Positions 8,329 to 32,343 of a stretch of DNA of 64,000 nt are shown here, in pieces; positions within the stretch are counted from its first letter, which is position 1; each line of letters starts with the position of its first letter. The stretch is taken from NCBI GenBank assembly GCA_034189385.1, contig JAXHVD010000001.1, positions 32,001 through 96,000 of the forward strand, in the 5' to 3' direction. The notes under the pieces are model-generated. The model was not told the DNA's origin. It did not search any database and worked only from the letters and a program-made list of their open reading frames with translations. Source of the stretch: Thermodesulfobacteriota bacterium (GTDB lineage: Bacteria > Desulfobacterota > Desulfobacteria > Desulfobacterales > C00003060). The position numbers and the translations under genes are program-made.

Positions 8329-8554
8329 AGGGTCTCCTGGGGTTAAATGCAGGTCTGACTTTTGTTCACCTTTGGCAGGGATAGCCCAGAATCATAGAAA
8401 GGGCGGGCTGTTCCCGTGAGTAGGACTCGCATGATGACGACCATAACGATCAGGGAGATAAAAGGTTTACAGAGGCCCGTAGCGCCCGGAAAGCCAAAGC
8501 AGTGAGGGCAGGAACGTTGATGATGGGGTGGAGAAGAAAGGAGGGGCTCGATCC

Positions 8555-16677: not shown

Positions 16678-17172
16678 ATGTTTACGATTAGAGACATTAT
16701 TGATTTGGCCATCCAGATAGAAGAGAACGGCGAAAGGGTCTATCGAAAAGCCGCTCAAAAGGTCTCTGCCACGTCCATCGCTGCCTTGCTTCTCCAGCTG
16801 GCCGATGATGAGGTGAAGCACGCCAAATGGTTCTCCGATATGAAAGAGAAGGTGACGAGGAGCGTAGACGATTCCGAGGTAGAGGAAAGAGGGAAGAGAG
16901 TCTTGCAGGGCATCCTCGGAGACCAGAGCTTTTCACTCAAAGACGCAGATTTTGCAAGTATCGAAGAGGTGGAAGGTCTCCTTAGGGTGGCCATTGAGTT
17001 TGAAGAAGACACGGTGCTCTTCTATGAGATGATTCGGTCCTTTGTTGATGATAAAGAGACGTTGGACCATTTGGACACCATCATTGAAGAAGAAAACCAC
17101 CATGTCTCACTCTTAAAGAGGTCTCTGCTGACGCTCCATGACTCATCCGTTTTGGCGAAGACTTCTCAGTGA
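16678..17172 (+). CDS. Ferritin-like/rubrerythrin-domain protein
   Basis: AIQIEENG...LADDEVKH and AIEFEEDT...EEENHH diiron motifs. Confidence 0.9.
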   Translation: MFTIRDIIDLAIQIEENGERVYRKAAQKVSATSIAALLLQLADDEVKHAKWFSDMKEKVTRSVDDSEVEERGKRVLQGILGDQSFSLKDADFASIEEVEGLLRVAIEFEEDTVLFYEMIRSFVDDKETLDHLDTIIEEENHHVSLLKRSLLTLHDSSVLAKTSQ

Positions 17173-17556
17173 CGTTGTCTCCGCAATGTGTCTTAGTTTG
17201 TACGACAGGTCTGCTGCTTTAAAAGGCTTTTCGATAAACCCGTGGATGCCTATACGAGCTGCCTCGGACACGAGGTCGCTGTCTCCATAGGTCGTGACCA
17301 GTATCTTCATAATATCGTAATGAGACGCTCTTACCAGCCTGAATAGCTCTAGCCCATCCATGTCCGGTAGCCTATAATCGGTGATGACGATGTCGAAATC
17401 CTGGCCGCGAAGAGCGTTTAGTGCTTCTTCGCCAGTCTCAAAGGCGAGAAATTGGCACCACTCTCCCTCAAAAAAGAGACTCAAAGAGTCTCTTATCCAC
17501 TCGTCACCGTCTACAAACAGGATCTTCGGCTTTCTCAACTTGGTCTTTAGGCCCAT
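17143..17556 (-). CDS. Stand-alone response regulator receiver
   Basis: ILFVDGD, ITDYRLPDMDG, FIEKPF. Confidence 0.85.
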   Translation of the reverse strand: MGLKTKLRKPKILFVDGDEWIRDSLSLFFEGEWCQFLAFETGEEALNALRGQDFDIVITDYRLPDMDGLELFRLVRASHYDIMKILVTTYGDSDLVSEAARIGIHGFIEKPFKAADLSYKLRHIAETTSLRSLRQNG

Positions 17557-17831
17557 AACGTAAGATGCCGTTTACAGAAGAAGCAGAAAGGGTCGGCACT
17601 GCCCATTTGGATCTGGCGTGCCATGAATTGGTAACGTTCAAAAGTTGAGGCAAAGGCCTTCAGCGGGCAGTTAGAGAGATAGGGATGATCGCTGAACGCA
17701 GGCATACAGCCGTTGCCATCTACACAAATGGCATGGGCTACCTAAAGGCATTGGATGCCGAAGAGAAGCGATTATCCCTATCTCGAAGTTGGTTGTCCAG
17801 AAATCCACTCAGTCAACACTTTTGAACGTTA

Positions 17832-19268
17832 CTACTTGATTAGAACTTTTGCTCCACCCTTATGATTCAGCCTTCTACCATCCTTGAAATAGAGGAAAAC
17901 CAAGGTACCCAGGGCGATTGTGCCCAATCCGAACAATGAGGTTATTGGTTTGCTCTTAATGGAAAAGTAGACAATCCAGATGTTGCCTAAGATGAATAGA
18001 AGGGGGGTGATGGGGTATCCGAAGGTCTTATAGTCTCTTTTCAAGTAGGGCTGTTTCATCCTAAGAAGGATCATCCCTATAACGGTGAACATAGCGCACA
18101 GGGAAAGGGTGAAGCCGATGTACAGCAAGAGCTTGTCAAAAGTTGTGGTGAATGCCATTGCAATAGCTATACCTGCTTGCAGCAATATGGCGTACGCAGG
18201 CGTTTTGTGGAGTTGGTTGACCTTGCCAAAGAGCTCGAAGAAAACGCCGTCTTTTGCCATGGCATAATAGACCCTTGGCCCAGCCATGATCATGGCGCTT
18301 AAGACAGAGAGTAGACCCACAGCAATGGCCCCGCTAAAATATTTACTCATATGGTCTCCGAAGAGGGAAACGGCAGATGTTGCTCCCACTTCCAGCACAC
18401 CGGTCATCTCATTTGTCGGAAGGGCGTAAATGTAAACAACGTTCAAAAGCAGATAAAGACACATGACCACAAATGTCCCGGTGAGAAGGGCAAGTGGGAT
18501 ATTCCTGCCCGGCCTTTTGATCTCTCCGCCAAGGTAAGCAGCGGCGTTCCACCCACTATAGGCAAAGGAGATGAAGATCAAAGAGATAGCAAACTTGTCT
18601 TGAAAGACTGAGCCTATGTCCAGCCCTCCGGCGAAATGGGCTGTAGAGCCGCTGCCCAGAAAAAGCCCCGCCGCGATAAAGACGGCAATGAGCCCGATTT
18701 TGAAAACGGTCAGTATGTTTTGCACCCTGCTGCCCAGGAAGACACTATGGTAGTGTATGAGTGAAACAACAACGATCACGGATGCTGCCAGTATGGTGAT
18801 CGGCGATATGGTGAGAACATGGATTCCCAACAGGGGAACGCTGTAACCCGAAATGGGAACGGCTGGCAGTAGACGGAAGGAATAAGTGGCAAAGGCGATG
18901 GAGGCTGCGGCAATGGGGGCAGAAAAGCCTACGATCAAAGAGATCCAGCCAGATAGAAAGGCCACGCCTTTGCCGAAGCTTTCTCGCAAGAAGATATACT
19001 CCCCACCTGCTTTGGGAAACATGGCTCCAAGCTCCCCATAGCAAAGGGCTCCGGATAACGCGAAAATTCCCCCAACAAACCAGCAAAGCAGCATGGTCTG
19101 AGGATTGCCGAGTTCGGCTATAATGAAGCCGGAGGTGGTGAATATCCCCGTCCCCACCATGTTGGCAATGACCAAGATCGTTGCCGTAAAAAAACCGATC
19201 TCTCTTTTCAGGCGGTGGTTATTTAAAGTATTTTTCAAAGCTTCTCTTAGTAGCCGGGAACGACCCAA
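17832..19268 (-). CDS. APC-family amino acid permease (LAT/SteT-like); true start possibly TTG 19238
   Basis: ANMVGTGIFTTSG, YGELGAMFPKAGGEY, FAYSGWN, GPRVYYAMAKDG. Confidence 0.92.
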   Translation of the reverse strand: MGRSRLLREALKNTLNNHRLKREIGFFTATILVIANMVGTGIFTTSGFIIAELGNPQTMLLCWFVGGIFALSGALCYGELGAMFPKAGGEYIFLRESFGKGVAFLSGWISLIVGFSAPIAAASIAFATYSFRLLPAVPISGYSVPLLGIHVLTISPITILAASVIVVVSLIHYHSVFLGSRVQNILTVFKIGLIAVFIAAGLFLGSGSTAHFAGGLDIGSVFQDKFAISLIFISFAYSGWNAAAYLGGEIKRPGRNIPLALLTGTFVVMCLYLLLNVVYIYALPTNEMTGVLEVGATSAVSLFGDHMSKYFSGAIAVGLLSVLSAMIMAGPRVYYAMAKDGVFFELFGKVNQLHKTPAYAILLQAGIAIAMAFTTTFDKLLLYIGFTLSLCAMFTVIGMILLRMKQPYLKRDYKTFGYPITPLLFILGNIWIVYFSIKSKPITSLFGLGTIALGTLVFLYFKDGRRLNHKGGAKVLIK

Positions 19269-19296
19269 AACGCCAAGGCATGTTGAGCTGTCTCTT

Positions 19297-20280
19297 TCAT
19301 TGTTTGGTGAGGTCTAACCATTTGTAAGGGTTCGTCTCTGCTGTGGTCAATCTTTGCAGCATCTGGGGCGTTACGTCAAACTCTTTTACTACGCCTACGA
19401 AGGCATCGGGCCTTTCCAGGTAGGGGAGCATGCCCAACATGGTCTTCAGCTTGTCCATGTCCTTTCTTCTTGCCTTGTCCCAGTTGAAATCGAACACGAC
19501 GCCCTTTCCCTTGCCTTTCTTCTGGTTCCACACCACGAGAATTCCGGCGGGATTCTCAAATGCAATGTTCTTTTCTTGAGATTCTGTGAGCTTTTCCACA
19601 ATAAGGCTCTTCTTGCCTGCAGTGACGTCCAGGAGCATCTGCACGGCGTCTTCCTTGCAGAAGGCAGGGCTTGCGATCCAGGTATAGCGTTCTCCTTTTT
19701 TAAGGGGATATCTGTCCCTGATCACCTTGGCGATCATATATCCTGAGGAAACGCCCGCGCAGAGGTGATTGTGGAATTCGGCGCATTTCAATAGATCCTG
19801 CGGTGCACCGGAAGCCCAGGCGTGGGCAATAGTGCCAACAGTGAAGGCGTCTGGGGCAAGGGGACCGCCTACCTCCTTCCAAAACCCTGGCTTGGAAGTG
19901 ACCTCTAGGCCAAGGTCGTATTGCTGCGTCTGCACCTTATCCCCGTCGCAGTCTATCACAAAGCATTGTTTGTTCTCCTTGCGAAAGAGGGCTATTTTCA
20001 ACGGGTGGCACGTGGCCCTGTGGAAAAACAGAAGATTGCCCTTGCCAACCGAGCACCCAGTTTCTTCTTGGATCACATCGACATAGGCTTCCGATGTCTT
20101 CCCGTTGACCCTCACATAGGTGGCGTCCGTTATGGCGCAGAGCTCTGTGCTCCCCTTATCAGCCTTCAGCTCTTTGAGCCCTTTTTTTATAGCATCCCTG
20201 ACATTGGCGGCGTGCACATTGCTGCTGACAACTAAGCATAAGGTTGCGGCCACGGCGATGAGTCGGATTGTTCGATTCAT
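19297..20280 (-). CDS. Exported FmdE-family protein
   Basis: Signal peptide (...NVHA-A); AEFHNHLCAGVSSGY and CKEDAVQ FmdE metal-ligand motifs. Confidence 0.82.
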   Translation of the reverse strand: MNRTIRLIAVAATLCLVVSSNVHAANVRDAIKKGLKELKADKGSTELCAITDATYVRVNGKTSEAYVDVIQEETGCSVGKGNLLFFHRATCHPLKIALFRKENKQCFVIDCDGDKVQTQQYDLGLEVTSKPGFWKEVGGPLAPDAFTVGTIAHAWASGAPQDLLKCAEFHNHLCAGVSSGYMIAKVIRDRYPLKKGERYTWIASPAFCKEDAVQMLLDVTAGKKSLIVEKLTESQEKNIAFENPAGILVVWNQKKGKGKGVVFDFNWDKARRKDMDKLKTMLGMLPYLERPDAFVGVVKEFDVTPQMLQRLTTAETNPYKWLDLTKQ

Positions 20281-20299
20281 TTTAAATCCTCTATCGTCT

Positions 20300-21061
20300 C
20301 TAAAGACCAATCGTCAAAGATGCGCGATAGGAGTAATCATCACATTCGGCCTTGTCTGGATAAGACTCCTTGTGAGTGGTCGTGAACAGCCAGGGCCCCT
20401 TGGCAGTGAGCTTGATCTGGACAAGGCCATCGGCATTGGTCTCCGCCTCCTGAGCCCAGTGATGCTTCTCTTCTGTAAAGCCTTCGTAAACTGCGCTGAG
20501 GGTTGCACCTGAAAGGGGTTTTCCTTCAAACAGGACCTTTAGGGGCAAGGTGTCGCCGACTTTAAGATCGGCAGGCGATGTCATGGCCACGATTTCCAGT
20601 GGATTTTGAGTCCTCTCTGAGAGATCTGCCTTCTTATCCCCGACGGTGATGAGCGCTTTGGCGCTCATCCTAAAGGCAAAGCAGTAGGGCGCGTCGGGAA
20701 AGTCGTTCTTGTTACCGAGCTTGTGACCATCTGCGGTCCTGGAGACAAAACCGGGCTTGACTGCGGCAACGATCTCATAGGCCCCTTTGGTCTTGGGGGT
20801 AAACTTGTAAAAGGAAGGAAAGATCTGTTCAAGCGGCAATTCTTTTCCCTTCGGATCCAGGGCGTAGACGCGGTCAAGGCGGCCCTTTTTTAGGATCTCA
20901 TCGCGGGGATACTTGTGCCCGAATCCGAGCTCGATCCATATGGTCTCTCCTGCCTCGGGAGCATATTTGCTTGCATTGAGCCAAAACATATGCGCCTGGG
21001 CTGAAGCAGCTATCCAGACAGGTAATAAGGCCAGCGCCACAACAACGTACCATTTTCTCAT
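20300..21061 (-). CDS. DUF4198 (NikM-like) periplasmic protein
   Basis: AQA-HMFWL mature N-terminal His; GFGHKYP, PLEIV, KVLFEGKPL, TNADG, GPWL. Confidence 0.88.
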   Translation of the reverse strand: MRKWYVVVALALLPVWIAASAQAHMFWLNASKYAPEAGETIWIELGFGHKYPRDEILKKGRLDRVYALDPKGKELPLEQIFPSFYKFTPKTKGAYEIVAAVKPGFVSRTADGHKLGNKNDFPDAPYCFAFRMSAKALITVGDKKADLSERTQNPLEIVAMTSPADLKVGDTLPLKVLFEGKPLSGATLSAVYEGFTEEKHHWAQEAETNADGLVQIKLTAKGPWLFTTTHKESYPDKAECDDYSYRASLTIGL

Positions 21062-21199
21062 TTCCCTTTTCCTCCTTCTCTTTAACCTTGCTCAATCGTG
21101 TCTTTCTTTGAGCGGCCTGTCCATTAGATCTGCCCAGGCAGAGTAAACTCGAAGCCGAGGCCGCTGTCCAGCTTTTTCTTGACTGTTGGCTGACGGGCG

Positions 21200-22081
21200 C
21201 TAACTTGCGGTCTTGTAACGCTTCGTCAAAAAATCTCCCACATAGATCAGGTGTTCAAATGGCAGCTTGCCCCCCGTCTCCCTCACAATCGTGTCAAGGG
21301 TGCCGCAGACAACCTTTTCTTTGTCCTTATAACCGGCATAGAGCACAATGGCTATAGGCGTTTCAGGGGGATAGTGGGTTTTCAGTTTGTCCACGACCTT
21401 TTCCAAGTCCAGGAACATGGTAAAAAAGACCATGGTGGCCTGGTGACGAGAGAGTTCTTCAATGCTGTCAGGTCCGGCATATTCCTCCCGTCCAAAGGAG
21501 GCCGTCAGGATGACCGAATGGGCCTTGACTCCTCGCGTCACGCCCTTGACCAGAGCCGCGTTGGCGGCATTGAAACAGCTTATACCGGGAACAATCTGAG
21601 GATCCAGATCTTCAAAGGCCTCCGCATACCACATATTCGGGCCATAGATCGTAGGGTCTCCGCTGCAAAGCACAGACACCACCTTGCTTTCTTTCACTGC
21701 CGTGCGAACAATCTTTGTGATGTCGTCAAAGGCCTTCATCTTCTCTTCATAACGGAATCGTTTATTCCTTCTTGCCTCCTCAGGAGACTTGCCATAGATG
21801 GCAAATATTCCAAAACCGGGATCATGGATTTCCTTCCCCTGCAAAAGGTCGGGAAATTGGTCTGGTATTTCTTTTCTGCAAAAGATGATGTCCGATCCCT
21901 TGATCGTGCTGACTGCGCGCAAGGTGAGGTTATCTGCGTCGCCACTGCCCATGCTGACGAGATAAAGCCCCGACTTCAACGTAGCTGGCTTCTTGTCCGG
22001 GCCGCAACCGACGGTGAGCATCATGAGGAAAACTGCTAGGGTGGTGATACCTATCCAACTGTGAACAAGGAACCTGTGCAT
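21200..22081 (-). CDS. Tetrapyrrole (corrin/porphyrin) methylase homolog, CobM/CbiF-like, with lipoprotein signal
   Basis: LYLVSMGSGDADNLTLRA, LCSGDPTIYG, VPGISCFNAA, YPPETPIAIV, GTLDTI; hydrophobic N-terminus ending in TVG-C. Confidence 0.82.
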   Translation of the reverse strand: MHRFLVHSWIGITTLAVFLMMLTVGCGPDKKPATLKSGLYLVSMGSGDADNLTLRAVSTIKGSDIIFCRKEIPDQFPDLLQGKEIHDPGFGIFAIYGKSPEEARRNKRFRYEEKMKAFDDITKIVRTAVKESKVVSVLCSGDPTIYGPNMWYAEAFEDLDPQIVPGISCFNAANAALVKGVTRGVKAHSVILTASFGREEYAGPDSIEELSRHQATMVFFTMFLDLEKVVDKLKTHYPPETPIAIVLYAGYKDKEKVVCGTLDTIVRETGGKLPFEHLIYVGDFLTKRYKTAS

Positions 22082-22199
22082 TCAAGCCTCCTTTTTGGAA
22101 TTGTTTGCCCGGTCTCACGTGACCTGGTATCTCTGTTTTTTCACTATAGGTCGCCGAAGTTTAGATCCTGGCTGTGATCCGGTTTTCAAGAAGTGTGTA

Positions 22200-24263
22200 T
22201 CACAGCCTGACTTCGATCCCGCCGTAGAACATGCGATCCGGCATGGGATACTCGTAGTCTTCTTCGTAGTCCTCATCCAATATATTCTCGCAGCCCACAA
22301 AGAGATAGGCCGTGTCCTGGATAATAGGATAGGTAATGATGCCGTTAAGGAGGAAATAGCTATCCATTTTTCCCGTTGCAGCAGTGCTCAGGTCCGACTC
22401 CCCTAAAGGGACCTCCCGGGAATCCACCCATTTCAAGGTCAGCTTTGCCAGCAACCCGTTATCCCTGTGGTAGGCAATGCCAATATTGAATTTGTGATCG
22501 GGCAGCTCGCTGATCTCATCTGAGACATTGGTGAGATCCAGGATGTCGCCCTCCTTGTCACTGGTTTGAAAGGTGTAATTGGCAAATAGAGAGACATTGT
22601 CATGAATCTGTGATTCCAGGTCCAGCTCGAAGCCTGTCAGTTCAACATTGTCGATATTGTAGACCACGCGGCTTGGCTTGTAGCCGAAGATCCATCTTAA
22701 GTAATCATCAATATCATAGTAATAGACCTTCGCCGACAGGGTCGTGTTCCTGATGCCCTTATAAGTGGCTCCTATTTCGTACTGCATGGCGTCTTCAAAG
22801 GTGAGGCTTTTTCTGTCAGGCGGCTGGTATCCGTTGTAGTACCAGTAGTACTTGGGAAGGGTTGGGAAATTAACGGCCCTTGCCACAGTAACAAAGGTCT
22901 CAAGATCGGATGTGGGAAAATAGAAGAGGCCGAACTTGGGAGAGACGGGGGTGTCTTCTATCACCTCAGCGTCCTCGTCATCGTCGCCCTTGTAGTCGTC
23001 CACCCTAAGACCCAGGTAAATGTCCAGATTCGACAATGCAGACCAGCGGTCCTGGATGAAACCTGAGTTGACCTTGGAGAGTTCATGCTTGTCCCCGGAG
23101 TTCTCGAAGGTGCCCGAAAGGAAGGTTGTGTCCACATACTTGTAGGTCGTTCCTCCATAGCCCAGGTAATTCCCCTCGACCCCAGCCTTCAGGGCATGGT
23201 CTGACAGGATCTTTTCACTTTTGAGACTCCAGCCCCAGGAGTAGTCTGACGGACAGTCCCTCTCCAGGGCAAGATACCCCGTGGCACGCTCAGAGATGTA
23301 GTCCGTGCGGTCTTCATCGTTGAGGTAATACCGTGCCTGCCAGTCGACCCCCAGCAAGCTCTTTTCCACGAGAACGTCCCATTCATATCTCTCCTTCCAA
23401 TAATAGCTTTCATCTCCGTGGGTTGTGCCCCCCTTCCATCTAAAGCCTGGTCCCACAAGCCGGTCTCCGGTGCTTTCCGGGTAGTCGTTATCGTAATAGG
23501 GCGAATCCTTCTGGTTCTCAACAATCATGCCGTACTCTCCCTCGTTGTAGCGTAACCCTGCCTTGAGCTTACCGTCACCAGGTAAATAGTAAGTGAGAGA
23601 GAGGGAGGCATCTTTTCTCTCCAGAAAATTATTTCGGAGATACCCATCGCTTTCACGATAACCGCCGCCTGCCACCAATCCAAATTGCCCTATCCGTTTT
23701 GAAATCAATGCCTGGGTATCATAGGTATAATACTCTTTGGCCCCTGCTCCCAATACGACCTCCAGTTCTTCCGATGGCTCCTTGGGGACAATGTTCACCA
23801 CACCGCCCAGGGTATTGCCATATTCGGCTAAGGCGGCCCCTTTTATGACCTCAATGCTTTCCACATCCTGAAGGGAAAGCATGCTCCAGTCCACGAAGTA
23901 GCCTCCACGCACGCCTGCACCGGTCAGTGGCCTGCCGTCAAGGTTCACAACGTACCTGTGCTCATCTAGCCCTCGTATTTTCACCATAGACCCGTCGGGC
24001 GTGCCGAGGCTCTGCCTGCCGATGTCGATGCCGGACATGGTGTCCAGGACATCTACTGCCGTGGCACCGACCTGATAGGTGGATTCTTGAACAGGTACCT
24101 CCACTGTCAGCTCGTCCATCGCCTTGGGGGCAGTGACCACAATATGTTCTAGCTTGACAGGTTCTTCATCTCCATCCATTGTCTCTTCCGCCCAGCTCGT
24201 CTGGGCCAGGAGCAAAAACACCATTGCCACAAAGACAGAAACCAGTTTCAACCTCTTCATCAT
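22200..24263 (-). CDS. TonB-dependent receptor
   Basis: Signal peptide, TonB-box-like EHIVVTA, plug motifs IRGL...LDGRP and IEVIKGA...YGNTLGGVVNIV, C-terminal ENILDEDY...PDRMFYGGIEVRL; AGGAGG RBS. Confidence 0.95.
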   Translation of the reverse strand: MMKRLKLVSVFVAMVFLLLAQTSWAEETMDGDEEPVKLEHIVVTAPKAMDELTVEVPVQESTYQVGATAVDVLDTMSGIDIGRQSLGTPDGSMVKIRGLDEHRYVVNLDGRPLTGAGVRGGYFVDWSMLSLQDVESIEVIKGAALAEYGNTLGGVVNIVPKEPSEELEVVLGAGAKEYYTYDTQALISKRIGQFGLVAGGGYRESDGYLRNNFLERKDASLSLTYYLPGDGKLKAGLRYNEGEYGMIVENQKDSPYYDNDYPESTGDRLVGPGFRWKGGTTHGDESYYWKERYEWDVLVEKSLLGVDWQARYYLNDEDRTDYISERATGYLALERDCPSDYSWGWSLKSEKILSDHALKAGVEGNYLGYGGTTYKYVDTTFLSGTFENSGDKHELSKVNSGFIQDRWSALSNLDIYLGLRVDDYKGDDDEDAEVIEDTPVSPKFGLFYFPTSDLETFVTVARAVNFPTLPKYYWYYNGYQPPDRKSLTFEDAMQYEIGATYKGIRNTTLSAKVYYYDIDDYLRWIFGYKPSRVVYNIDNVELTGFELDLESQIHDNVSLFANYTFQTSDKEGDILDLTNVSDEISELPDHKFNIGIAYHRDNGLLAKLTLKWVDSREVPLGESDLSTAATGKMDSYFLLNGIITYPIIQDTAYLFVGCENILDEDYEEDYEYPMPDRMFYGGIEVRL

Positions 24264-24393
24264 TAACCTCCTGATTACCTCCTGACATCCTGCCCCTCGT
24301 CCAAGACCAGCGTGGCCCGCGTAGTAGCAGACAGTGCACAACAAACCATTTGAGGCCTCGCTCAGACCCACGTAGCTTCCTTTTGCTCTCTTC

Positions 24394-25080
24394 TTATGTG
24401 AGCTCAAAGACCATGGTGAGTTCCAGGGGTATCTCGCCCCTGAACAGTTGTCGAGGCGGTTTCGGGAAAGGGGCGGCATCTCGGACGGCCCTGAGGGCCG
24501 CGTCATCCAAGGCGCAACAGCCGGAGGCCTTGGCCAGCGTCAAGGCTTGGACTTCGCCTTTAGGGGTAATGACAAAGCGTATTACGACCTCTCCTTCTAT
24601 TTGTCGCAATCTTGCTGTGTCAGGGTATTGCTTATGTCTTTCTACCTGGAATCTTACCATGTCGAAGTAGCTACGGGAGGTTGCATAATCGACGGCATTC
24701 TGTGTCAAATCCACGGGGTCCCAACTGGCTACGTCCAACTTGGGCATGGCCGGAATATTCGGCGTGGCTATTGGTTCCACAAGACTTTCGGGCTCAGCCC
24801 TTTCAACCGGTTCCATTTTCGGGGGCTTCAGCCGGGGAATGACTGGCTGGGTGGCCTGCAATCTCTTTATGTCCTGCTGTTCAGGCGGTGTCTTGGGCCT
24901 GTGGCGCGGCCTGGGAATGCTTCTTGAGAAGGGTTTAGACAGGTCTTCAACGGTCAACTCAATGTAGCTCAGGGCATTTGACGTATAGATCCCCGATACG
25001 TGCAGAAAAAGGAGAAGATGTATACAAGCAGAAAAGCCGATCAGACTGCGAAGAAGCCAGTTTGGCTTTCTATTACTCAT
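24394..25080 (-). CDS. tonB: Energy transducer TonB
   Basis: N-terminal TM with SxxxH, Pro-rich linker, YPDTARLRQIEGEVVIRFVI...SG...LDDAALRAV..A.PFPKPP. Confidence 0.92.
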   Translation of the reverse strand: MSNRKPNWLLRSLIGFSACIHLLLFLHVSGIYTSNALSYIELTVEDLSKPFSRSIPRPRHRPKTPPEQQDIKRLQATQPVIPRLKPPKMEPVERAEPESLVEPIATPNIPAMPKLDVASWDPVDLTQNAVDYATSRSYFDMVRFQVERHKQYPDTARLRQIEGEVVIRFVITPKGEVQALTLAKASGCCALDDAALRAVRDAAPFPKPPRQLFRGEIPLELTMVFELT

Positions 25081-25089
25081 GGTTCACCT

Positions 25090-25497
25090 CTACAATTCCT
25101 TTTCAGTAGCCAGGCAAAGCCTCCCGGCCCCAGCGGCCTTGGCGATGTCCATCACCTTTACGGCCTTATTCAGGATGACCGCACGGTCAGCTCGAATAAC
25201 GACTAATTTGTCTTCCCGGTTTCTCATCATCTCCGTCAGCCGGTCAAAAAGGCTGCCAAGAGAGACTTCTTCGGCACCGAGGAAGGCCCTGCCTTGCTCA
25301 TCCACGTATACGGTAACCACTTCCTCGGTTTGAGGGGCAGCAGCCTTGGCCTGAGGCAGCTTGATCTTGATGCCCTCCTCCACCATAAAATTGGTGGTCA
25401 AGAGAAAGTAGATAAGAAGGAGAAAGACAATATCAATGAGCGACGTCAGGGGCACCTGCGGCGCAATACGGTTTCTGCGTTTAGGATGCACGAGCAT
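25090..25497 (-). CDS. exbD: Biopolymer transporter ExbD/TolR
   Basis: LTSLIDIVFLLLIYFLL; IRADR...VKVMD. Confidence 0.93.
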   Translation of the reverse strand: MLVHPKRRNRIAPQVPLTSLIDIVFLLLIYFLLTTNFMVEEGIKIKLPQAKAAAPQTEEVVTVYVDEQGRAFLGAEEVSLGSLFDRLTEMMRNREDKLVVIRADRAVILNKAVKVMDIAKAAGAGRLCLATEKEL

Positions 25498-26191
25498 GAT
25501 GACTTTCCTTCAGGGTTGGTTCTGTGCAGACAGGACGAACGACGCTCTTTGCCGGGCTCTGCTGGACATGTCCTGTGTGGTTTCCCGGCCGCTTGCCTAT
25601 GGCCTTGATGAAGGTCACGATCCCGTCGCGGAGTTGGGCCTCGTATCGGTCCACCCTGGAGACCAGGTAGCTATGGGCCACCATGGTGGGAAGGGCTACG
25701 GCCAGACCCAGGGCCGTGGTGAGCATGGCCTCCCAGATGCCTCCGGCAAGAACGGCTGCATTGACCTTGCCCCCCATTTGCTGAATCACCATGAATGCCT
25801 TGATCATGCCCAAAACGGTTCCCAAAAGACCCAAAAGCGGAGCGATGTTTCCAATGGTTGCCAGTGCTTGGAGGTACCGGGAGAGTCCTCTCACTTCCTC
25901 CTCTGTAGAGTGAACAATGACCGTCTCCAGGGTTTCACGGTCTTGATCCACCACCTCTATGGCGTGGGCCAAGATCCGGCCCATGGGAGACCCGCTTCCG
26001 CCTGCAAGTGTTAGTGCCTCCTTGTGCTCACCTTTCCTGATGTGGTGGGCGACATTTCTCACCAACCCAAAGCCTCGAATCTTGACCTTGGCAAAACGGA
26101 TAAGCCTTTCCAAAAAGATCGCCAGAGCGAGGACGGAACACGTTAAAATGGGCCCCACCAAGATGCCCCCTTTTGCGAGAAAGTCCATCAT
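25481..26191 (-). CDS. exbB: MotA/TolQ/ExbB proton channel
   Basis: APLLGLLGTVLGMIKAF; GIWEAMLTTALGLAVALP. Confidence 0.93.
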   Translation of the reverse strand: MMDFLAKGGILVGPILTCSVLALAIFLERLIRFAKVKIRGFGLVRNVAHHIRKGEHKEALTLAGGSGSPMGRILAHAIEVVDQDRETLETVIVHSTEEEVRGLSRYLQALATIGNIAPLLGLLGTVLGMIKAFMVIQQMGGKVNAAVLAGGIWEAMLTTALGLAVALPTMVAHSYLVSRVDRYEAQLRDGIVTFIKAIGKRPGNHTGHVQQSPAKSVVRPVCTEPTLKESHHARAS

Positions 26192-26251
26192 GTTGTTAAG
26201 CCTCCTGTATCCATAGTTCCATAGTAACGTTAGAACTTGAGATAAGCCCCT

Positions 26252-28075
26252 TTAGCCCTCTGCCGAGGTCTTTTCCTCCACAGCGGGCGTGTCCACCGTG
26301 TCTGGTTCCCCATCGAAATTCAGATCTCTTGACCGCTTTACCAGGGCCTCTGACTGGTCGTATTCCTCCCACAGATCTGGTTTCCCATCGCTGTTGGTAT
26401 CTTCCTCCACGCTGGTGAGGTTCCCCTTGTCGTAGTAATACCAAGTGTCCAGGCGGCCATCTCCGTCGGTATCCTTTTCCGCCCGGATCGCCTCTTGAGA
26501 GTCGTTGTAATGCCAGGTGATGGTCAGGCGCCCGGCCCCCTCGTCATCTTCCTCGCTCTTTGTAAGCTTGCCGTCAGCATCATATTGCTCTCTTAGGTTG
26601 AGGCATCCGTCACTGTCTTCATCGATCTCTCTTGACCGTAACGTCCCGTCCTGATAGCAGTAACGACCCTCAGGCTTGCCGTCACCATTGGCGTCCAGCT
26701 CGGTCACCATGGACCAGGGAGGTCTCTTGAACCACTGGGTGATCTCAAAGCGGCCGTCACCGTCTTTGTCTTGAATCAGTTTCTGTTTCTTACCCTTGTC
26801 GTAAAAGACTTTCAGGCTCACCCTCCCACCGCCTGTGGGGTCTCTCTCCATCCTCGCCAGCGCTCCCTCTTCATAGTACTCCCGGGTGTCGATGGTTCCA
26901 TTGAGGTCCGTGTCGCTTTCCACACGCTCCTTTTCGTGTTTGGCGTTAAAGTAGATGGTTACGTCCGGCCTCCCATCTTTATTGTTGTCCCGGCTCTGCA
27001 AGGCAGGCTGGCCGTTCTTAAAGAGGGTCGCGGTTTCTTTGAAGCCATCCCCGTCTCCGTCATGGACCATCTTGACGGGCTCCCCTTTGCTATAGGTCGT
27101 AATCCGGTCGATCTGGCCCGTATGGCTGGTGTCTTCCTCCATCTTTTCCGCATGGCCCTGGGCGTCAAAATGGATGAACACGTCCTTTCTGCCATCAAAA
27201 TTCGTATCCTTTTCCTGATAGGTGGGCTGTCCTGCATCAAAGCGGGTGATGACGTCAAATTGTCCGTCGCGATTTCCGTCTTTCTTCTGTTCAACCGGCT
27301 CCCCGCCATCAAACCGAGTGACAAGCTCAAACCTACTGTCCTGGTCGGCATCCTTTTTCTGCTCCCACAACTCGCCCTGGCGATAGAGGCGGACCACCTC
27401 CATCTTACCGTCTCGGTCCAGGTCGTGACGGCTCTCTTTGGCAAGGCCCTCTTGGTCAAAAAGGGTGACCTTCTCGACCTGGCCGTCGCCGTCTTCATCC
27501 CTACGACTTTCAACAGGTTTGTCATCTTGAAAGGTCTGCCAGACGTTGACTCTCCCATCGCCATCGGTATCTTTGGAAGAAAGGGAGAGACGGCCTTCCC
27601 GGAAAACGTAGACGGTGTCGAACTTGCCATCTTGTGTCGTGTCTTTTTGCACTTTCAAGGGACGCTCTTGTGCATCAAAGGATATGATCTGTTCTACCCG
27701 GCCGGTCTGGGCAGAGGCACGTTCGCGTCGGATTCTTTTACCGCTTTTGAAATAGTCCCAAGTATCTACCTTGGTGTCATGATCGGTGTCTGTTTCGATC
27801 CGTTTGATTTGATCGCCTTCGTAGTACTGCCAGCGGTCCATGACCTGGTCTGCATTGCCGTCAATCTCCAGCTTGACAAGGGTCCCCTCTTCGTCAAAAT
27901 GGGCGACCTGGTCTATCTTCCCGTCCCCATCGCTGTCCTGCTCCACGACCTTGACCTCCCCAAGGAGGGGTATAGGCCAAAGGACAATGGCCAAGGCACA
28001 GATGACCGTGCAGACAATCCCACAGTGTTTGACGTAACATCCTGTCATCGCTTCTTTTTTTCTGAATGGGTCCAT
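26252..28075 (-). CDS. Exported repeat protein with 23 tandem ~24-aa units carrying Dx[DN]xDG-like motifs
   Basis: N-terminal hydrophobic segment, then periodic units (e.g. DSDGDGKID, DTDGDGRVN, DKDGDGRFE, DTNSDGKPD), each followed by aromatic beta-strand-like residues. Confidence 0.85.
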   Translation of the reverse strand: MDPFRKKEAMTGCYVKHCGIVCTVICALAIVLWPIPLLGEVKVVEQDSDGDGKIDQVAHFDEEGTLVKLEIDGNADQVMDRWQYYEGDQIKRIETDTDHDTKVDTWDYFKSGKRIRRERASAQTGRVEQIISFDAQERPLKVQKDTTQDGKFDTVYVFREGRLSLSSKDTDGDGRVNVWQTFQDDKPVESRRDEDGDGQVEKVTLFDQEGLAKESRHDLDRDGKMEVVRLYRQGELWEQKKDADQDSRFELVTRFDGGEPVEQKKDGNRDGQFDVITRFDAGQPTYQEKDTNFDGRKDVFIHFDAQGHAEKMEEDTSHTGQIDRITTYSKGEPVKMVHDGDGDGFKETATLFKNGQPALQSRDNNKDGRPDVTIYFNAKHEKERVESDTDLNGTIDTREYYEEGALARMERDPTGGGRVSLKVFYDKGKKQKLIQDKDGDGRFEITQWFKRPPWSMVTELDANGDGKPEGRYCYQDGTLRSREIDEDSDGCLNLREQYDADGKLTKSEEDDEGAGRLTITWHYNDSQEAIRAEKDTDGDGRLDTWYYYDKGNLTSVEEDTNSDGKPDLWEEYDQSEALVKRSRDLNFDGEPDTVDTPAVEEKTSAEG

Positions 28076-28140
28076 ATTCCGCTCTTAGTACACGAGGCAC
28101 TTAACCCGCGTCTTGTGCGCACTTTGCCCCTTCCCCTACA

Positions 28141-28156
28141 GCATCAAGTGTGCCAA
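28141..28156 (-). promoter_or_regulatory. Sigma54 (-24/-12) promoter
   Basis: TTGGCACACTTGATGC has GG-N10-GC spacing, 65 nt upstream of the repeat-protein ATG. Confidence 0.85.
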
Positions 28157-28240
28157 GAGGTATGAAGTGAATAATCGCCATAAATTTTAAAGAGTTAGTC
28201 CAGTTAGCCCTTTCTTGAGGTCCTGTGTCAGAGGGCAAGT

Positions 28241-28278
28241 TTAGAAGAATTGCGAACAAGGATTAGAAGAATTGCGAA
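28241..28278. promoter_or_regulatory. Tandem 16-bp direct repeat TTAGAAGAATTGCGAA, putative enhancer (UAS)
   Basis: Identical copies at 28241-28256 and 28263-28278 (22-bp period), about 85-120 bp upstream of the sigma54 site, with an AT-rich tract between. Confidence 0.72.
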
Positions 28279-28313
28279 ATAGGTGAGGGCGAACCTGGAT
28301 TGGGACAAAAGGG

Positions 28314-29699
28314 CTACTGGATTTGAAGCTTCTTTTTGCGGTAGCGAAAGGTGTGGTGGTTTAGGTTCAGGAGCTTTGCGGCCTTGCTCTCATTGCCTCC
28401 AGCCATCTTCAGGGCTTCTTCGATATAGTGTCTTTCCAAAGATTCTTGCACAGCGGTAAGGTCGATGCCGGTAGCCGGAAGGGGGGGGGACTCTGCCGCC
28501 ATTGGGCTATGGGCGGTTTGACCTCCACGGGAAGCCTCAATCCCAAGGTCCTTCAGTGCAATCTCCGACCCTTTGCCGACGAGAACTGCCCGTTCTATCA
28601 CATTTCTCAACTCACGGACATTGCCCTCCCAATGGAGTTCATTCAAGGCGCCTTCGGCTTCACCAGAGAGTCTGCTAAAGGGTTTGCCGTGTTTCTGACT
28701 GAATTCTACCAGGAAGTGTCTTGCAATGGGAACGATGTCGTCACGCCGCTTATCAAGGGACGGCACCTCTACTTTAATAACGGCGAGGCGATAGTAAAGA
28801 TCTCGTCTGAAATCGCCTTGTTGTATCATCATCTCCAGGTCCTTGTTGGTGGCAGATACGACCCGGGTCTGGACTCGCAGCTTCTTGGTCCCCCCCAACC
28901 TGTAAAATTCCCCATCTTCAAGAAAACGCAAAAGTTTTGCCTGGGCTGCCAAGCCCAGGTCGCCCACCTCGTCTAGGAACAGGGTCCCCTTTTCCGCCTC
29001 TTCTACCAGCCCCTTTTTCCCGGATGTATTTGCCCCGCTGAAAGCCCCCTTCTCATATCCAAAAAGCTCGCTTTCAATGAGGTCGTGGGGGATAGCCCCG
29101 CAATTGACAGTTATCAGGGGGCCCTCAAAATGGGGGCTCCTGTAGTGTATGGCATTGGCAATGAGTTCCTTGCCTGTTCCGGTCCCACCAAGAATCAGGA
29201 TCGGCGTGTCAGGGCTCTTGGCCACCTTTCCTATAAAGTCCATCACGTCTTGGATGACGTTGCTCTCTCCTATGAAGCAAGGCAGGTTCTCCCTGAGATA
29301 TTTCTCTTGCAGGAGCTGCACTTCTTTCCTCAGGCGGACCGTCTTGAGCGCGTTTGTGATGGTCACCTCTAGGCCGTCCATATGAATCGGTTTTACCACA
29401 TAGTCGTAGGCCCCCAGCTTCATTGCAGAGACTACGGTTTCGATATCCTCATAAGCGGTTATCATGATGACCAACACATCAGGATGGCGCTCTTTCACCT
29501 TGGCAAGGGCTTCAAGCCCGCTCATGCCGGGAAGTCCTATGTCAAGCAATATGAGATCAGGGGGGGTCTTTCCCATGGCTGCAATGGCCGTTTCAGCCGA
29601 GGCAAATCCCTCCATCAGGTAATCCGGCTCAAGGGCCATGGTGATGCCTTCCCTTATGGTTTCTTCGTCGTCCACGATGTATATGGAATATGAGATCAT
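28314..29699 (-). CDS. Sigma54-dependent response regulator (NtrC family)
   Basis: REC domain, GGTGTGKE, ESELFGYEKGAFSGA, LFLDEV, WEGNVREL, C-terminal HTH. Confidence 0.96.
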   Translation of the reverse strand: MISYSIYIVDDEETIREGITMALEPDYLMEGFASAETAIAAMGKTPPDLILLDIGLPGMSGLEALAKVKERHPDVLVIMITAYEDIETVVSAMKLGAYDYVVKPIHMDGLEVTITNALKTVRLRKEVQLLQEKYLRENLPCFIGESNVIQDVMDFIGKVAKSPDTPILILGGTGTGKELIANAIHYRSPHFEGPLITVNCGAIPHDLIESELFGYEKGAFSGANTSGKKGLVEEAEKGTLFLDEVGDLGLAAQAKLLRFLEDGEFYRLGGTKKLRVQTRVVSATNKDLEMMIQQGDFRRDLYYRLAVIKVEVPSLDKRRDDIVPIARHFLVEFSQKHGKPFSRLSGEAEGALNELHWEGNVRELRNVIERAVLVGKGSEIALKDLGIEASRGGQTAHSPMAAESPPLPATGIDLTAVQESLERHYIEEALKMAGGNESKAAKLLNLNHHTFRYRKKKLQIQ

Positions 29700-31894
29700 C
29701 TTTTTTCAACCCTTTTTTCCACGGGGATTTCAATCCTAAACTCTGCACCGCCCCATTTACTCGAGTTAACAGATAATGATCCGCCGTGGTCTGATATGAT
29801 TCTATGGCTGAGGCTCAGCCCTATGCCTGAGCTGTCGCTTTTGGTAGTAAAGAAGGGATCGAATATCTTTTCTCTGTCGCTGAAAGGCACACCAGGCCCG
29901 GAGTCTGAAACCTTTATGACAATGTGGTTGTTCTTCTCAAAGGAGGCTATCTCCACTTTCTTGGGTCCCGCTGCTTTTCTCATGGCTTGGGCAGCATTGG
30001 TGACCAGGTTCAAGATCACCTGTTCAATCAGATGGCTGTCCGCATGGCACTGAGGTAGCGCCGGGGACAATGCCTTTTCAAGCTCAATTCCCCTTTTTCG
30101 CAGCGTCACCGCAGAAAGATTGATCGCCTCTTCAATGGATGTATTGATGTTTGTCAAAGCCAGCTTGGGCCGACTCGGTTTCGAGAAATCCATCACCCGT
30201 CTTACGACCGACTCTATTTTCCCTGAAGCAGACTGGATTTGTTCGACGATTCTTTTGGCCTTTTGCAGGCCTTTTTGACCAATGCCCTCAGAATCGCCAA
30301 GAAGTTTTTTCAGGGTCGCCAGATAGATATTGATGCCCGATAAGGGATTTCTGATTTCATGGGCAATGCCGGCAGCTACGTGGCCCAGGGAAACCATCTT
30401 TTGCTTGGTGAGGACCAGTTGCTCGAATTCCTTGGCCCTGGTAATGTCCATCATGTTCACCAGTACCGCTCGCTTGCCTTGGTACTGGATTAGACTGGCT
30501 CGGCAGTGGACCCATCTCATGTCAACGGCGTTGCCTATCCTGTCCATTGGATAGAACCTTAGTTCTGTGTCCAGGGCCTGGGCAGCCCCTGACAAGACCT
30601 TCTGGTAAAAGCGGCCAAAGGCTTCTGCATCATGGGGATGAATGCTTTGGAAATCTTTGAAGCTAAAGGGTTCAGGCAAAGGCCCAAAAAGCCTTTCCTG
30701 TTCGGGATTCTTATATACGATTTTGTCTTCTTGTATAATGAATATACCGGTCAGGGAGTTGTCCACCAAATCACGCGAGCGGCGCTCGCTTTCCCGCAAG
30801 GCGTTAGCTGATGCAGCCATTTCCTTCAAGTACTTGGCTTCTGTCTCAAGCTCTGCCTTTCGTCTTTGGGTCTTCAATAAGAACGCGCCGCCAATTCCAA
30901 AGAGAAATACGACAATGACTGCAAGGGCAAATATGTTCCTTGCATGTTTATTGATCGGTCCTGCAATCTCATCATATGGCAAGGCGACGACCAAATTCCA
31001 ATCCCTGTCTCCTATGGCCACTCTCTTATAGGCTACCAACTCATTTTCATTGGTCTCACAATTGACGAAGAGACCAAATCCGCTGTCTTCTACCTTCAGT
31101 CTATTGAGGTAATTATGATCCTTCAGAATGTGCTCCTTCAGGCCGTGTTTGTGAAAACGTTCCCCCCTTACCAGATGCATCTTCCTGATGACGTCTTCAA
31201 TGGACAGCCCAATGAACCTCTTTTCGGGGTGTGAAAGAATGACATCTTTGTAATCAAACATCCACGCACAGCCTCGGCCTCCCAGCTTGACCGGCTGGAT
31301 GAAACGCTCTGAGATGGCGTCCAGAGTAATTCTGCGTTCAATGATTCCCCTAAAGTGATTCTCATAGAACACAGGCTCCAACAGTGAGATAGTAAGGGTC
31401 CCTGCCTGGTTGAGGAATACGTCACCAACATACGGTTTGTGCTTCTTGAGGACATAGGCGACACTGGGCCTTTCAGCCAAGTTCTTTCTGCCTTCAGAAC
31501 CGTTCCCTTGCCAGGGTGGAGATCGATGCAACATCACCCCTCGAGCATCGAACAGACAAATGGCATCAACATCGTTCTTGTGGACTTCGTAGAAGAGCTC
31601 CAGTCTAGAATAGCCGAGGTCTGCCAAGTCACGGGAGGTAGCCGTCCCCTTTTCTGCCTGTAAGAGTGTCTCTTGTGCCATCGTCTGCAGGGCCTCTGAA
31701 TGCAGCGTGACGAAACCTTCAACGCTTCTAGCCGTTGCCTTTGCAATGGTGAGCAACTGCTGTTCAGTCTGGTAGACCATTGTATCTCTAAACTCCCTTT
31801 GGGAGACGTATGCAAGGCCAAGGACGACTGCGATGACAACCACACCGATGACAATGCCTATTGCCACGGTCACAGATGTTCTTATCATTCTCAT
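29696..31894 (-). CDS. Membrane sensor histidine kinase (Cache-like, PAS, HisKA, HATPase)
   Basis: Two TM helices flanking a periplasmic domain; AHEIRNPL, NLVTNA, DSGPG, FFTTK, GIGLS; stop overlaps the regulator start. Confidence 0.93.
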   Translation of the reverse strand: MRMIRTSVTVAIGIVIGVVVIAVVLGLAYVSQREFRDTMVYQTEQQLLTIAKATARSVEGFVTLHSEALQTMAQETLLQAEKGTATSRDLADLGYSRLELFYEVHKNDVDAICLFDARGVMLHRSPPWQGNGSEGRKNLAERPSVAYVLKKHKPYVGDVFLNQAGTLTISLLEPVFYENHFRGIIERRITLDAISERFIQPVKLGGRGCAWMFDYKDVILSHPEKRFIGLSIEDVIRKMHLVRGERFHKHGLKEHILKDHNYLNRLKVEDSGFGLFVNCETNENELVAYKRVAIGDRDWNLVVALPYDEIAGPINKHARNIFALAVIVVFLFGIGGAFLLKTQRRKAELETEAKYLKEMAASANALRESERRSRDLVDNSLTGIFIIQEDKIVYKNPEQERLFGPLPEPFSFKDFQSIHPHDAEAFGRFYQKVLSGAAQALDTELRFYPMDRIGNAVDMRWVHCRASLIQYQGKRAVLVNMMDITRAKEFEQLVLTKQKMVSLGHVAAGIAHEIRNPLSGINIYLATLKKLLGDSEGIGQKGLQKAKRIVEQIQSASGKIESVVRRVMDFSKPSRPKLALTNINTSIEEAINLSAVTLRKRGIELEKALSPALPQCHADSHLIEQVILNLVTNAAQAMRKAAGPKKVEIASFEKNNHIVIKVSDSGPGVPFSDREKIFDPFFTTKSDSSGIGLSLSHRIISDHGGSLSVNSSKWGGAEFRIEIPVEKRVEKR

Positions 31895-32343
31895 AGACGT
31901 TGACGGGATATGGTCATGGCTTAGGCGAGTCGGCCCATGGACAGATAGAGCAAAATGGGCATCCTCGGCTCTCCCTCGATTCAGGCACTAGTCAATCGGG
32001 AAACGCTATGGTTCTTGGAGGCGTGAGAATCAATGATAGACAGATATGGGTGTGGGGCTTTTGAACCGAATAAGCGAGCGCAGCCCCCGCAGGTTCTGCC
32101 CGTTGGCAGTGCTGGCGCGGCGCAGGCTGCGGGGGTAGCAAGCGTATAGTTAAAAATACAACAACCTTGCGGTGAACATTCCCCGTGCCTTGACTTCGAC
32201 GAGCTCCATTCGGCCCGAGCTCATGGCCGAGGGCAGTCGAGTCGCCACGGGGAGGGTTCAATCCTTAAGGAGGACACTACTCGTCCCGCTTCATGCCTTC
32301 GGTTCACAGTTTCTTCAAGAGCCCCCTTTCGCGTTTGGACGCA

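Follow-up and report, generated by a model that had tools for sequence, protein, structure and literature searches.

Layout of the locus and position of the cassette

The DNA analysed here (the window) is a stretch of 64,000 nucleotides from a Thermodesulfobacteriota bacterium (GenBank assembly GCA_034189385.1, contig JAXHVD010000001.1, positions 32,001 to 96,000), and the element under study is a TonB-dependent uptake cassette that stands behind a two-component regulatory unit. Eleven intact open reading frames (ORFs), all on the minus strand, lie in the order that an earlier note had read from the sequence, and both order and families are confirmed by the ORF list, Pfam and NCBIfam. The eleven genes are two systems: (i) the host regulatory unit of kinase, regulator and promoter, whose kinase is no part of the uptake cassette, and (ii) the nine-gene cassette itself, which, to judge by the DNA of relatives, was very probably inserted at the sigma-54 promoter in this genome.

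The regulatory unit includes a histidine kinase with dCache_1 and PAS domains (29696..31894; Pfam), an NtrC-type sigma-54 enhancer-binding response regulator with a GAFSGA loop variant (28314..29699; NCBIfam), an exact 16-bp direct repeat pair with 22 bp spacing (28241-28256 and 28263-28278; 28241..28278 as a whole) and a candidate sigma-54 (-24/-12) promoter (28140..28156), the last two likewise on the minus strand and the promoter called by motif score and by recurrence behind regulator orthologues. The cassette comprises an exported all-beta DxDxDG repeat protein (26252..28075), ExbB (25481..26191; NCBIfam), ExbD (25090..25497; NCBIfam), TonB (24394..25080; NCBIfam and Pfam), a TonB-dependent receptor (22200..24263; likely start 24263, 687 residues), an exported class III (CbiF/CobM-fold) S-adenosylmethionine (SAM)-methyltransferase homologue of PF00590 (21200..22081; hereafter the methylase), a DUF4198 protein of PF10670 (20300..21061), an exported FmdE-domain protein of PF02663 (19297..20280) and an amino acid-polyamine-organocation (APC) permease of PF13520 and of the L-amino acid transporter (LAT)/BasC type (17832..19238). 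The cluster had been closed at the permease, which is one gene short: a 207-bp miniature inverted-repeat transposable element (MITE) with terminal inverted repeats (17628..17834, no strand assigned) bounds the cassette on the right and is followed, on the strand of the permease, by a gene for a single-domain receiver (17143..17556). As described earlier, the cluster is without an ATP-binding cassette (ABC) transporter, no ABC component having scored among the eleven proteins, and without a visible cobalamin riboswitch, no Rfam family reaching its gathering score anywhere in the window. A repeat search of four intergenic gaps, made with no Fur or NikR operator matrix scan, finds no notable palindrome.

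The regulator has four close orthologues (64-79% identity, in three of 36 same-genus genomes), all with GAFSGA. Behind every one of them comes a sigma-54-like site, with a single-domain receiver gene next in line. A near-identical 16-bp repeat pair stands behind the closest orthologue (L229). The repeat sequence of the window occurs just twice genome-wide; its length of 16 was reached in none of 1000 shuffles and in four of 2000 random 238-nt windows, and the regulator probably binds there. Compared with the consensus, the sigma-54 site reaches 11 of 13, and 179 sites in the genome score at least 11; weak as the score is alone, the site is credible because all four orthologues have one behind them, and the closest has the repeat pair as well. 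The enhancer-like repeats and sigma-54 promoter first read from the sequence are upheld on these grounds, and the locus shares with sigma-54 two-component-controlled operons a -24/-12 site with activator repeats upstream. The regulator is not conserved with the operon, as orthologues of the kinase or regulator occur in none of the 29 repeat-protein loci and none of the 86 methylase loci treated below. Kinase homologues are present in seven of the 36 same-genus genomes, with no uptake gene recognised next to those inspected, and in the two same-genus genomes with both the repeat gene and kinase homologues these lie on separate contigs. The two-component pair, which had been counted into the uptake system, is dropped from it on the absence from these loci and on the receiver gene that follows the regulator orthologues.

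All four orthologue receivers have the 17143-17556 gene as their best match in this genome (59.5% to L225), and the best same-genus match of that gene is the receiver behind the closest regulator orthologue; it was probably the original target of the sigma-54 promoter. From the regulator stop to the promoter the DNA aligns to L225 with a score of 122 (shuffle maximum 75), and after the promoter it does not align (279 of 300 shuffles score as high), which would place the left breakpoint of the cassette just downstream of the promoter. The 71 bp left before the receiver gene equal the promoter-to-start distance in L225; a point that speaks against the insertion is that these 71 bp align weakly to L225, with 23 of 300 shuffles scoring as high. 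The same stretch (17557-17627) holds a degenerate -24-like sequence without the -12 GC, which may be chance. The MITE lies between the permease and receiver genes, with one end overlapping the permease stop codon; it has many genome copies (the best group >92% identical), and a read-depth spike and loose ends are seen at both borders. In relatives the receiver gene comes directly after this promoter; here the cassette separates the two. Misassembly is unlikely, given even depth in sample X1, perhaps the source sample, and one bridging contig piece from a second sample (X2), which spans 28097-28370 with zero differences. Runs X3 and X4 contain small shares only and were left aside for habitat. 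A joint of 17750 to 32061 was disregarded, as no more than 22 letters between repeats support it. A repeated element at about 32060-32262, upstream of the kinase, has many partial copies and a depth spike.

No other promoter is found in the 238-bp gap, where a sigma-70 scan stays at chance level, and the terminator scan is likewise at chance level. The cassette is, on balance, probably now transcribed from the captured sigma-54 promoter. Its most likely history is insertion at the promoter with loss of the leader that relatives carry, which makes the signal control local. A pathway built as signal-induced, as the earlier note had it, does not agree with those relatives, where control is by a leader of the Ni/Co type, by NikR or an MntR-like gene, or by a cobalamin riboswitch.

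Recurrence and parts of the cassette

Loci were seeded by cassette genes and many are kin, so that the counts are not independent and show recurrence, not statistics. The methylase query gives 72 loci, which by their record titles belong mostly to Desulfobacterota and Planctomycetota. Of these loci, 47 have DUF4198, 40 the permease, 39 a receptor, 14 FmdE and six the repeat protein. The pooled set holds 148 non-duplicate loci seeded by the methylase, receptor, permease or repeat gene; four duplicate loci (L150, L158, L194 and L197) were dropped before the pooled counts, and two pairs remain in the permease-seeded count. The 86 non-planctomycete exported-methylase loci include the receptor in 70, DUF4198 in 54, the permease in 53 and all three in 32, as well as a small His1 protein (35), a major facilitator superfamily (MFS)/spermidine-synthase fusion (20), FmdE (18) and the repeat protein (11). 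Where at least 4 kb is available on each side (50 of the 86 loci), the receptor is found in 41, DUF4198 in 35, the permease in 36 and all three in 25. The whole nine-gene set of the window is found elsewhere only in L048 and L149, and FmdE and the repeat protein are accessory. The supposition that the gene set is conserved together is borne out for the core of receptor, DUF4198 and permease and fails for the full set. As had been supposed, a TonB uptake module that has no ABC transporter but carries an exported methylase along with DUF4198 and an APC permease does recur widely and is metal-linked, and the view that it is undescribed stands: no account was found in the open-access literature, judged by titles and abstract openings and without subscription papers or supplements. 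The 18 planctomycete methylase loci carry DUF4198 (10) and CbiQ (4) and neither receptor nor permease. A DUF1559 gene lies directly upstream of the methylase in 16 planctomycete loci (L053, L056, L062, L066, L101 and others), and DUF4198 and cbiM/Q/O-like genes are sometimes next.

The methylase model (predicted local distance difference test (pLDDT) 79) has the class III methyltransferase fold, with CbiF/CobM as the closest solved folds (Z 18.8, root-mean-square deviation (rmsd) 2.9, 222 aligned). Its score against TIGR01465 is 108.5 bits, below the cut-off of 259.65. The GxGxG, GDP, PGxS and AG motifs are kept in all eight methylase groups, the lid differs, and the CbiF stretches GSL and TR, which presumably serve in substrate binding, are changed. 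By these sequence features the methylase is not CbiF, and its kept motifs suggest that it binds SAM. A hydrophobic leader, called by a hydropathy heuristic rather than SignalP, is present in 109 of 110 full-length members, a count that leaves aside four truncated exported-type rows and a CobA-like control. The methylase had been called a lipoprotein, which is probable for this lineage and does not extend to the family, where the lipobox pattern is found in 21 of 110 members; the pattern used missed LTVGC of the window protein itself. A tree made by a quick method from 138 domains, its long branches flagged, shows several subfamilies, including tandem fusions, and a profile search gives 178 representatives at E <= 1e-30, with ordinary cytoplasmic enzymes in the lower ranks. 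The genome (90% complete) has four PF00590 matches, which are a CobA-like fusion, a protein which we take to be RsmI-like and two exported forms, with no cytoplasmic CbiF among them. The second exported methylase (G000:C2:3458-4354) is of another subfamily and stands alone; this subfamily follows the receptor clade of the window in L102.

Fusions join the methylase to DUF4198 (L156, P0253, P0263 and P0294), FmdE (L075 and P0315), rhodanese and sulfite-oxidase-like domains, some with CxxCH. The methylase-sulfite-oxidase-like fusions of L139, L141, L143, L146, L160, L165 and L169, most with CxxCH, stand beside the same permease and a receptor. Exported nucleoside-hydrolase genes joined to FmdE, with DxDxxxDD intact, are found in four loci (L102:13344-14489, L132, L191 and L047), one of them directly between the closest receptor and the methylase of that receptor. 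The hydrolase domain could act on S-adenosylhomocysteine (SAH), adenosine or a cobamide nucleoside. The nucleoside hydrolases of these four loci and the MFS/spermidine-synthase fusions of 20 loci fit a SAM/SAH theme.

The receptor of the window is matched best by the NCBIfam models NF049944-NF049947, at 204-252 bits and below all of their cut-offs (700-850). In 85 receptors, one loop after a motif which we take to be FRAP-like carries CxxU or PCPU in eight, CxxC in three and PDxHG in 24; the window receptor has an aromatic loop where its kin have CxxU or PCPU. In all eight CxxU/PCPU receptors the TGA is followed, at a distance of 12-13 nt, by a hairpin, and the L095 and L044 receptors, when read through the TGA, pass the cut-offs of the PCPU and FCYXU NCBIfam selenoprotein models. 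Such selenocysteine (Sec) receptors, split at TGA by ORF calling, lie within methylase operons at L030, L036, L038, L044, L046, L050, L051, L095 and L121. The window receptor is an open frame with no in-frame TGA or Sec motif, and selenocysteine was ruled out for both receptor and methylase, as both frames are open. The accessible part of the deep-Sep article reports a Desulfosarcina selenoprotein receptor (PMC12013277), and a selenoprotein receptor family is listed in the accessible part of a review (PMC13188914). An exported protein of 450 residues, with no Pfam or NCBIfam match, directly follows CxxC/CxxU receptors at L049:8501-9859, L030, L042 and L045. The receptor is not a BtuB by score (62.9 bits against a cut-off of 836) or by context, there being no upstream cobalamin riboswitch; a separate riboswitch-led receptor with BtuFCD-like genes lies on contig C56, and B12 uptake in this genome seems to be served by that locus. 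The pairing of methylase subfamily with receptor subfamily changes from locus to locus.

The DUF4198 protein has the N-terminal His, exposed after signal cleavage, of DUF4198 His1 metal binders. Of 52 sequences, 51 have both this His1 and a second His, and both are invariant in 43 rows. The second invariant His, His26 of the mature chain, might correspond to His18 of IsDUF4198 (9GCB), and the Zcp triad His29/His31/His142 is absent (His142 aligns to Asp, and there is no His pair at 29/31). In the portions of the articles available, the IsDUF4198 homologue binds Ni (dissociation constant 18 nM) via His1 and His18 (PMC12537917), and the homologue Zcp binds Zn via a different triad (PMC12663993). 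The FmdE protein has the His-x-His-x-Cys...Cys metal site, with H170, H172, C174 and C208 kept in 16 of 16, and aligns to 2GLZ; according to the accessible part of PMC2954224, the same four residues bind Zn/Ni in the Desulfitobacterium FmdE structure, and most fmdE genes adjoin metal transporters. A second exported FmdE protein (G000:C64:98808-99797; 51% identical) lies away from any receptor.

The best PDB match of the permease is BasC (E 3e-50), with TM1/TM6 motifs kept. Its LAT-type site is present, the TM5 Lys being found in 32 of 35 and the TM7 Tyr in 34 of 35 sequences. LATs are described in the available part of PMC6472337 as obligatory exchangers marked by this Lys and Tyr. By analogy, a LAT-type exchanger would fit a co-substrate or ligand shuttle better than net metal import. 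The repeat protein is modelled (pLDDT 92.5) as an extended beta-hairpin sheet, stands beside a cognate ExbB in 27 of 29 loci and is found in 14 of 36 same-genus genomes. It forms its own unnamed Atlas cluster; Foldseek gives local Rhs/YD/teneurin-type matches only (TM <= 0.16, rmsd >40), and the Lsa25.6 match is below cut-off. Identification as an Rhs protein or adhesin was not adopted, as the matches are local and Lsa25.6 falls short. Elsewhere in the window (8528-12229), the ORF list shows a 1233-residue fusion, presumably of biotin-carboxylase/carboxyltransferase-like domains, with a Cys-rich tail at its end.

Metal link, proposed mechanism and rival explanations

Relatives have a conserved CCAyGAAGG hairpin, overlapping a terminator, upstream of the cassette. 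A leader model built from 24 copies gives 43 matches in 38 sources, among them 19 of the 27 repeat-protein loci and also L102, where the closest receptor lies, and nine of the loci hit are from outside the seed; it has no match in the window, in four regulator loci or in five orphan-permease loci, and the leader has no Rfam match in the seven loci scanned. Examples of this hairpin/terminator leader, which has an ANGAA loop and in many cases another hairpin upstream, are L048:3737-3815, L193:1995-2071 and L102:8743-8823. The leader has two sites only in this genome, both in a metal locus (G000:C1:344742-353782; L236, L237) that carries DUF4198 along with ABC and cbiM/Q/O-like genes and one porin-like gene. 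Among relatives, NikR is above cut-off directly upstream in L192, an MntR-like gene is present in L193, a cobalamin riboswitch precedes the operon in L042, and cbiM/Q/O-, modABC-, tupA- and cbiK-like genes are neighbours. The leader shared with cbiMNQO-like genes, the NikR, MntR-like and riboswitch contexts and the Sec receptors indicate Ni/Co scavenging, and Ni/Co is probably the cargo of the cassette. Of the earlier proposal that a metal chelate or tetrapyrrole is imported, the metal link stands and a tetrapyrrole substrate is disfavoured.

The nine-gene cassette is tentatively read, at slightly less than even likelihood, as a TonB-dependent importer of Ni/Co chelates in which the exported methylase helps periplasmic unloading, and which was inserted behind the promoter of another gene. 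ExbB, ExbD and TonB would energise the receptor, a role established for these families, and co-occurrence makes the repeat protein a probable accessory to them. The receptor is predicted to take up a metal complex, likely of Ni/Co. The later steps are doubtful. The methylase might methylate the chelate ligand, perhaps a thiolate or sulfide, with the metal passing to the DUF4198 His site and the FmdE His2Cys2 site. The permease might, with no greater confidence, exchange an amino-acid-like solute, either supplying SAM and clearing SAH or cycling an amino-acid ligand, the metal entering via the cbiMNQO-like genes elsewhere on the contig. A bolder form of this reading, held to be rather unlikely, is an extracytoplasmic SAM methylation cycle in anaerobes from sulfidic environments, in which the exchanger would export SAM and recover SAH, exported CbiF-fold enzymes would methylate the sulfur ligands of the imported metal complexes, the metal (Ni/Co or Mo/W) would go to His and His/Cys chaperones, and Sec receptors would capture the complexes at the cell surface. 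This cycle, if true, would be a new metal-acquisition chemistry and a function for selenoprotein receptors.

Several observations count against Ni/Co import with an exported methylase and a permease as joint parts. The permease is not obligatory: it is missing from all 18 planctomycete methylase loci, and an intact exported methylase is nearby in six of 19 permease-seeded loci, leaving 13 without. In a 401-genome sample, with thresholds too strict for divergent members and a handful of methylase matches uninspected, the permease is found in 30 genomes, the methylase in 30 and both in 13. Several orphan-permease loci adjoin cytoplasmic SAM enzymes, and because such enzymes are common this is weak evidence. 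The loop of the window receptor is without Cys, Sec or His, and to our knowledge SAM is not known as a periplasmic metabolite. Substrate, activity and expression of the cassette proteins are predictions from sequence. In L161, L159, L153 and L140, modABC- or tupA-like genes adjoin the methylase or the permease, which hints at versions for Mo/W rather than Ni/Co.

An unlikely alternative is corrinoid or metallo-tetrapyrrole salvage, with the methylase fold serving as a periplasmic tetrapyrrole-binding protein, much as the chelatase fold of periplasmic CbiK of Desulfovibrio is said to do. CbiF/CobM as the closest fold, the riboswitch-led operon of L042 and the joining of CbiK, FecCD and permease in L135 are in its favour; a genome without a cytoplasmic CbiF among its four PF00590 matches may need salvage, and a cobamide lower ligand is a conceivable substrate of the nucleoside hydrolase. 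This evidence is countered by the separate riboswitch-led receptor and BtuFCD-like genes on C56, by a receptor far under the BtuB cut-offs and by SAM motifs that are kept while the CbiF GSL and TR stretches are changed. Cobalamin riboswitches, moreover, control cobalt transporters too.

Rather less probable is a metallophore cycle in which an amino-acid precursor leaves through the permease, is made into a chelator by the exported methylases in the periplasm and, once loaded, is taken back by the receptor. The conserved LAT-type amino-acid site, the borosin peptide methylases that share the fold (Z ~13) and the MFS/spermidine-synthase fusions of the 86-locus set are consistent with such a cycle, and several methylase subfamilies per locus and tandem fusions suggest multi-step chemistry. 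Among the scanned neighbours, however, there is no nonribosomal peptide synthetase (NRPS), NRPS-independent siderophore synthetase (NIS) or nicotianamine-synthase family, methylase and receptor subfamilies change partners across loci, and the SAM supply problem persists. Still more doubtful is a stranded passenger, a cassette inserted without its leader and poorly expressed, with the methylase as a catalytically dead scaffold. The loss of the native leader, the MITE abutting the permease stop codon and the lone C2 methylase, of the type that follows this receptor clade in L102, agree with it; nine intact frames, a third-position GC content (GC3) like that of the flanks and SAM motifs conserved across subfamilies do not. 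The model of the earlier note, with a cargo-sensing kinase and all eleven genes evolved as one signal-induced pathway, draws on the intact promoter and repeats, the co-oriented genes and a gap with no sigma-70-like site, and is very improbable and largely refuted as a conserved design by the lack of kinase and regulator orthologues at the 86 and 29 loci, by regulator orthologues that all four precede a receiver gene, here beyond the cassette, and by the separate contigs of the repeat gene and kinase homologues in two same-genus genomes.

Known systems and significance

With Ni/Co chelate import as the preferred reading, the cassette works like TonB-dependent Ni/Co uptake, plus two parts without a known counterpart there. 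The TonB Ni/Co loci with DUF4198, FmdE, NikR and CbiMNQO (PMC12537917, PMC12663993, PMC2954224) resemble it, as far as the accessible parts of these articles go, in the receptor and the periplasmic His and His/Cys metal proteins, and their NikR, MntR-like or riboswitch context recurs in relatives of the cassette. By contrast, the cassette is without an ABC or energy-coupling factor (ECF) transporter, and the accessible text of those articles makes no mention of a LAT-type permease or an exported methyltransferase. The methylase has the fold and SAM-site motifs of CbiF/CobM (PDB 4E16, 1CBF, 3NDC; TIGR01465) but differs in its signal peptide, an extra lid of ~25 residues and an uptake-operon context; cytoplasmic location and membership of the cobalamin pathway do not apply, and no corrin ring-contraction pathway was found in the genome. 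The permease shares with BasC/LAT (PDB 6F2G) the TM1/TM6 motifs and residues equivalent to Lys154, Tyr236, Phe199 and Ala200, as named in the accessible part of PMC6472337; it has Ser for Asp202 and belongs to a distinct clade (50-77% identity) tied to methylase operons. The window receptor is in the same clade as the selenoprotein TonB receptors NF049944-NF049947, whose PCPU and FCYXU members sit in this module, although its own loop is without Sec or Cys; the accessible parts of PMC12013277 and PMC13188914 give no gene context for such receptors. BtuB-BtuFCD has a TonB receptor in common with the cassette, of which one relative is riboswitch-led, whereas the window is without a riboswitch and the Btu-like locus on C56 is separate.

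What is new here is the link to the permease, the link to Sec receptors and the insertion. The window is a clear natural case of a cassette that landed between an enhancer-dependent promoter and the gene of that promoter. Methylase genes of this type are mislabelled as precorrin methyltransferases, which can inflate predictions of cobalamin synthesis, and the module supplies a gene context for selenoprotein TonB receptors. It recurs in bacteria of the sulfate-reducer type and is present in the cultured strains Desulfonema magnum (L030), Desulfosarcina variabilis (L072) and Desulfocarbo indianensis (L068). Sulfate reducers have a high need for Ni and Co where sulfide precipitates both, and little is known of how they acquire the two metals. 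A periplasmic SAM methyltransferase that proved active would be very surprising.

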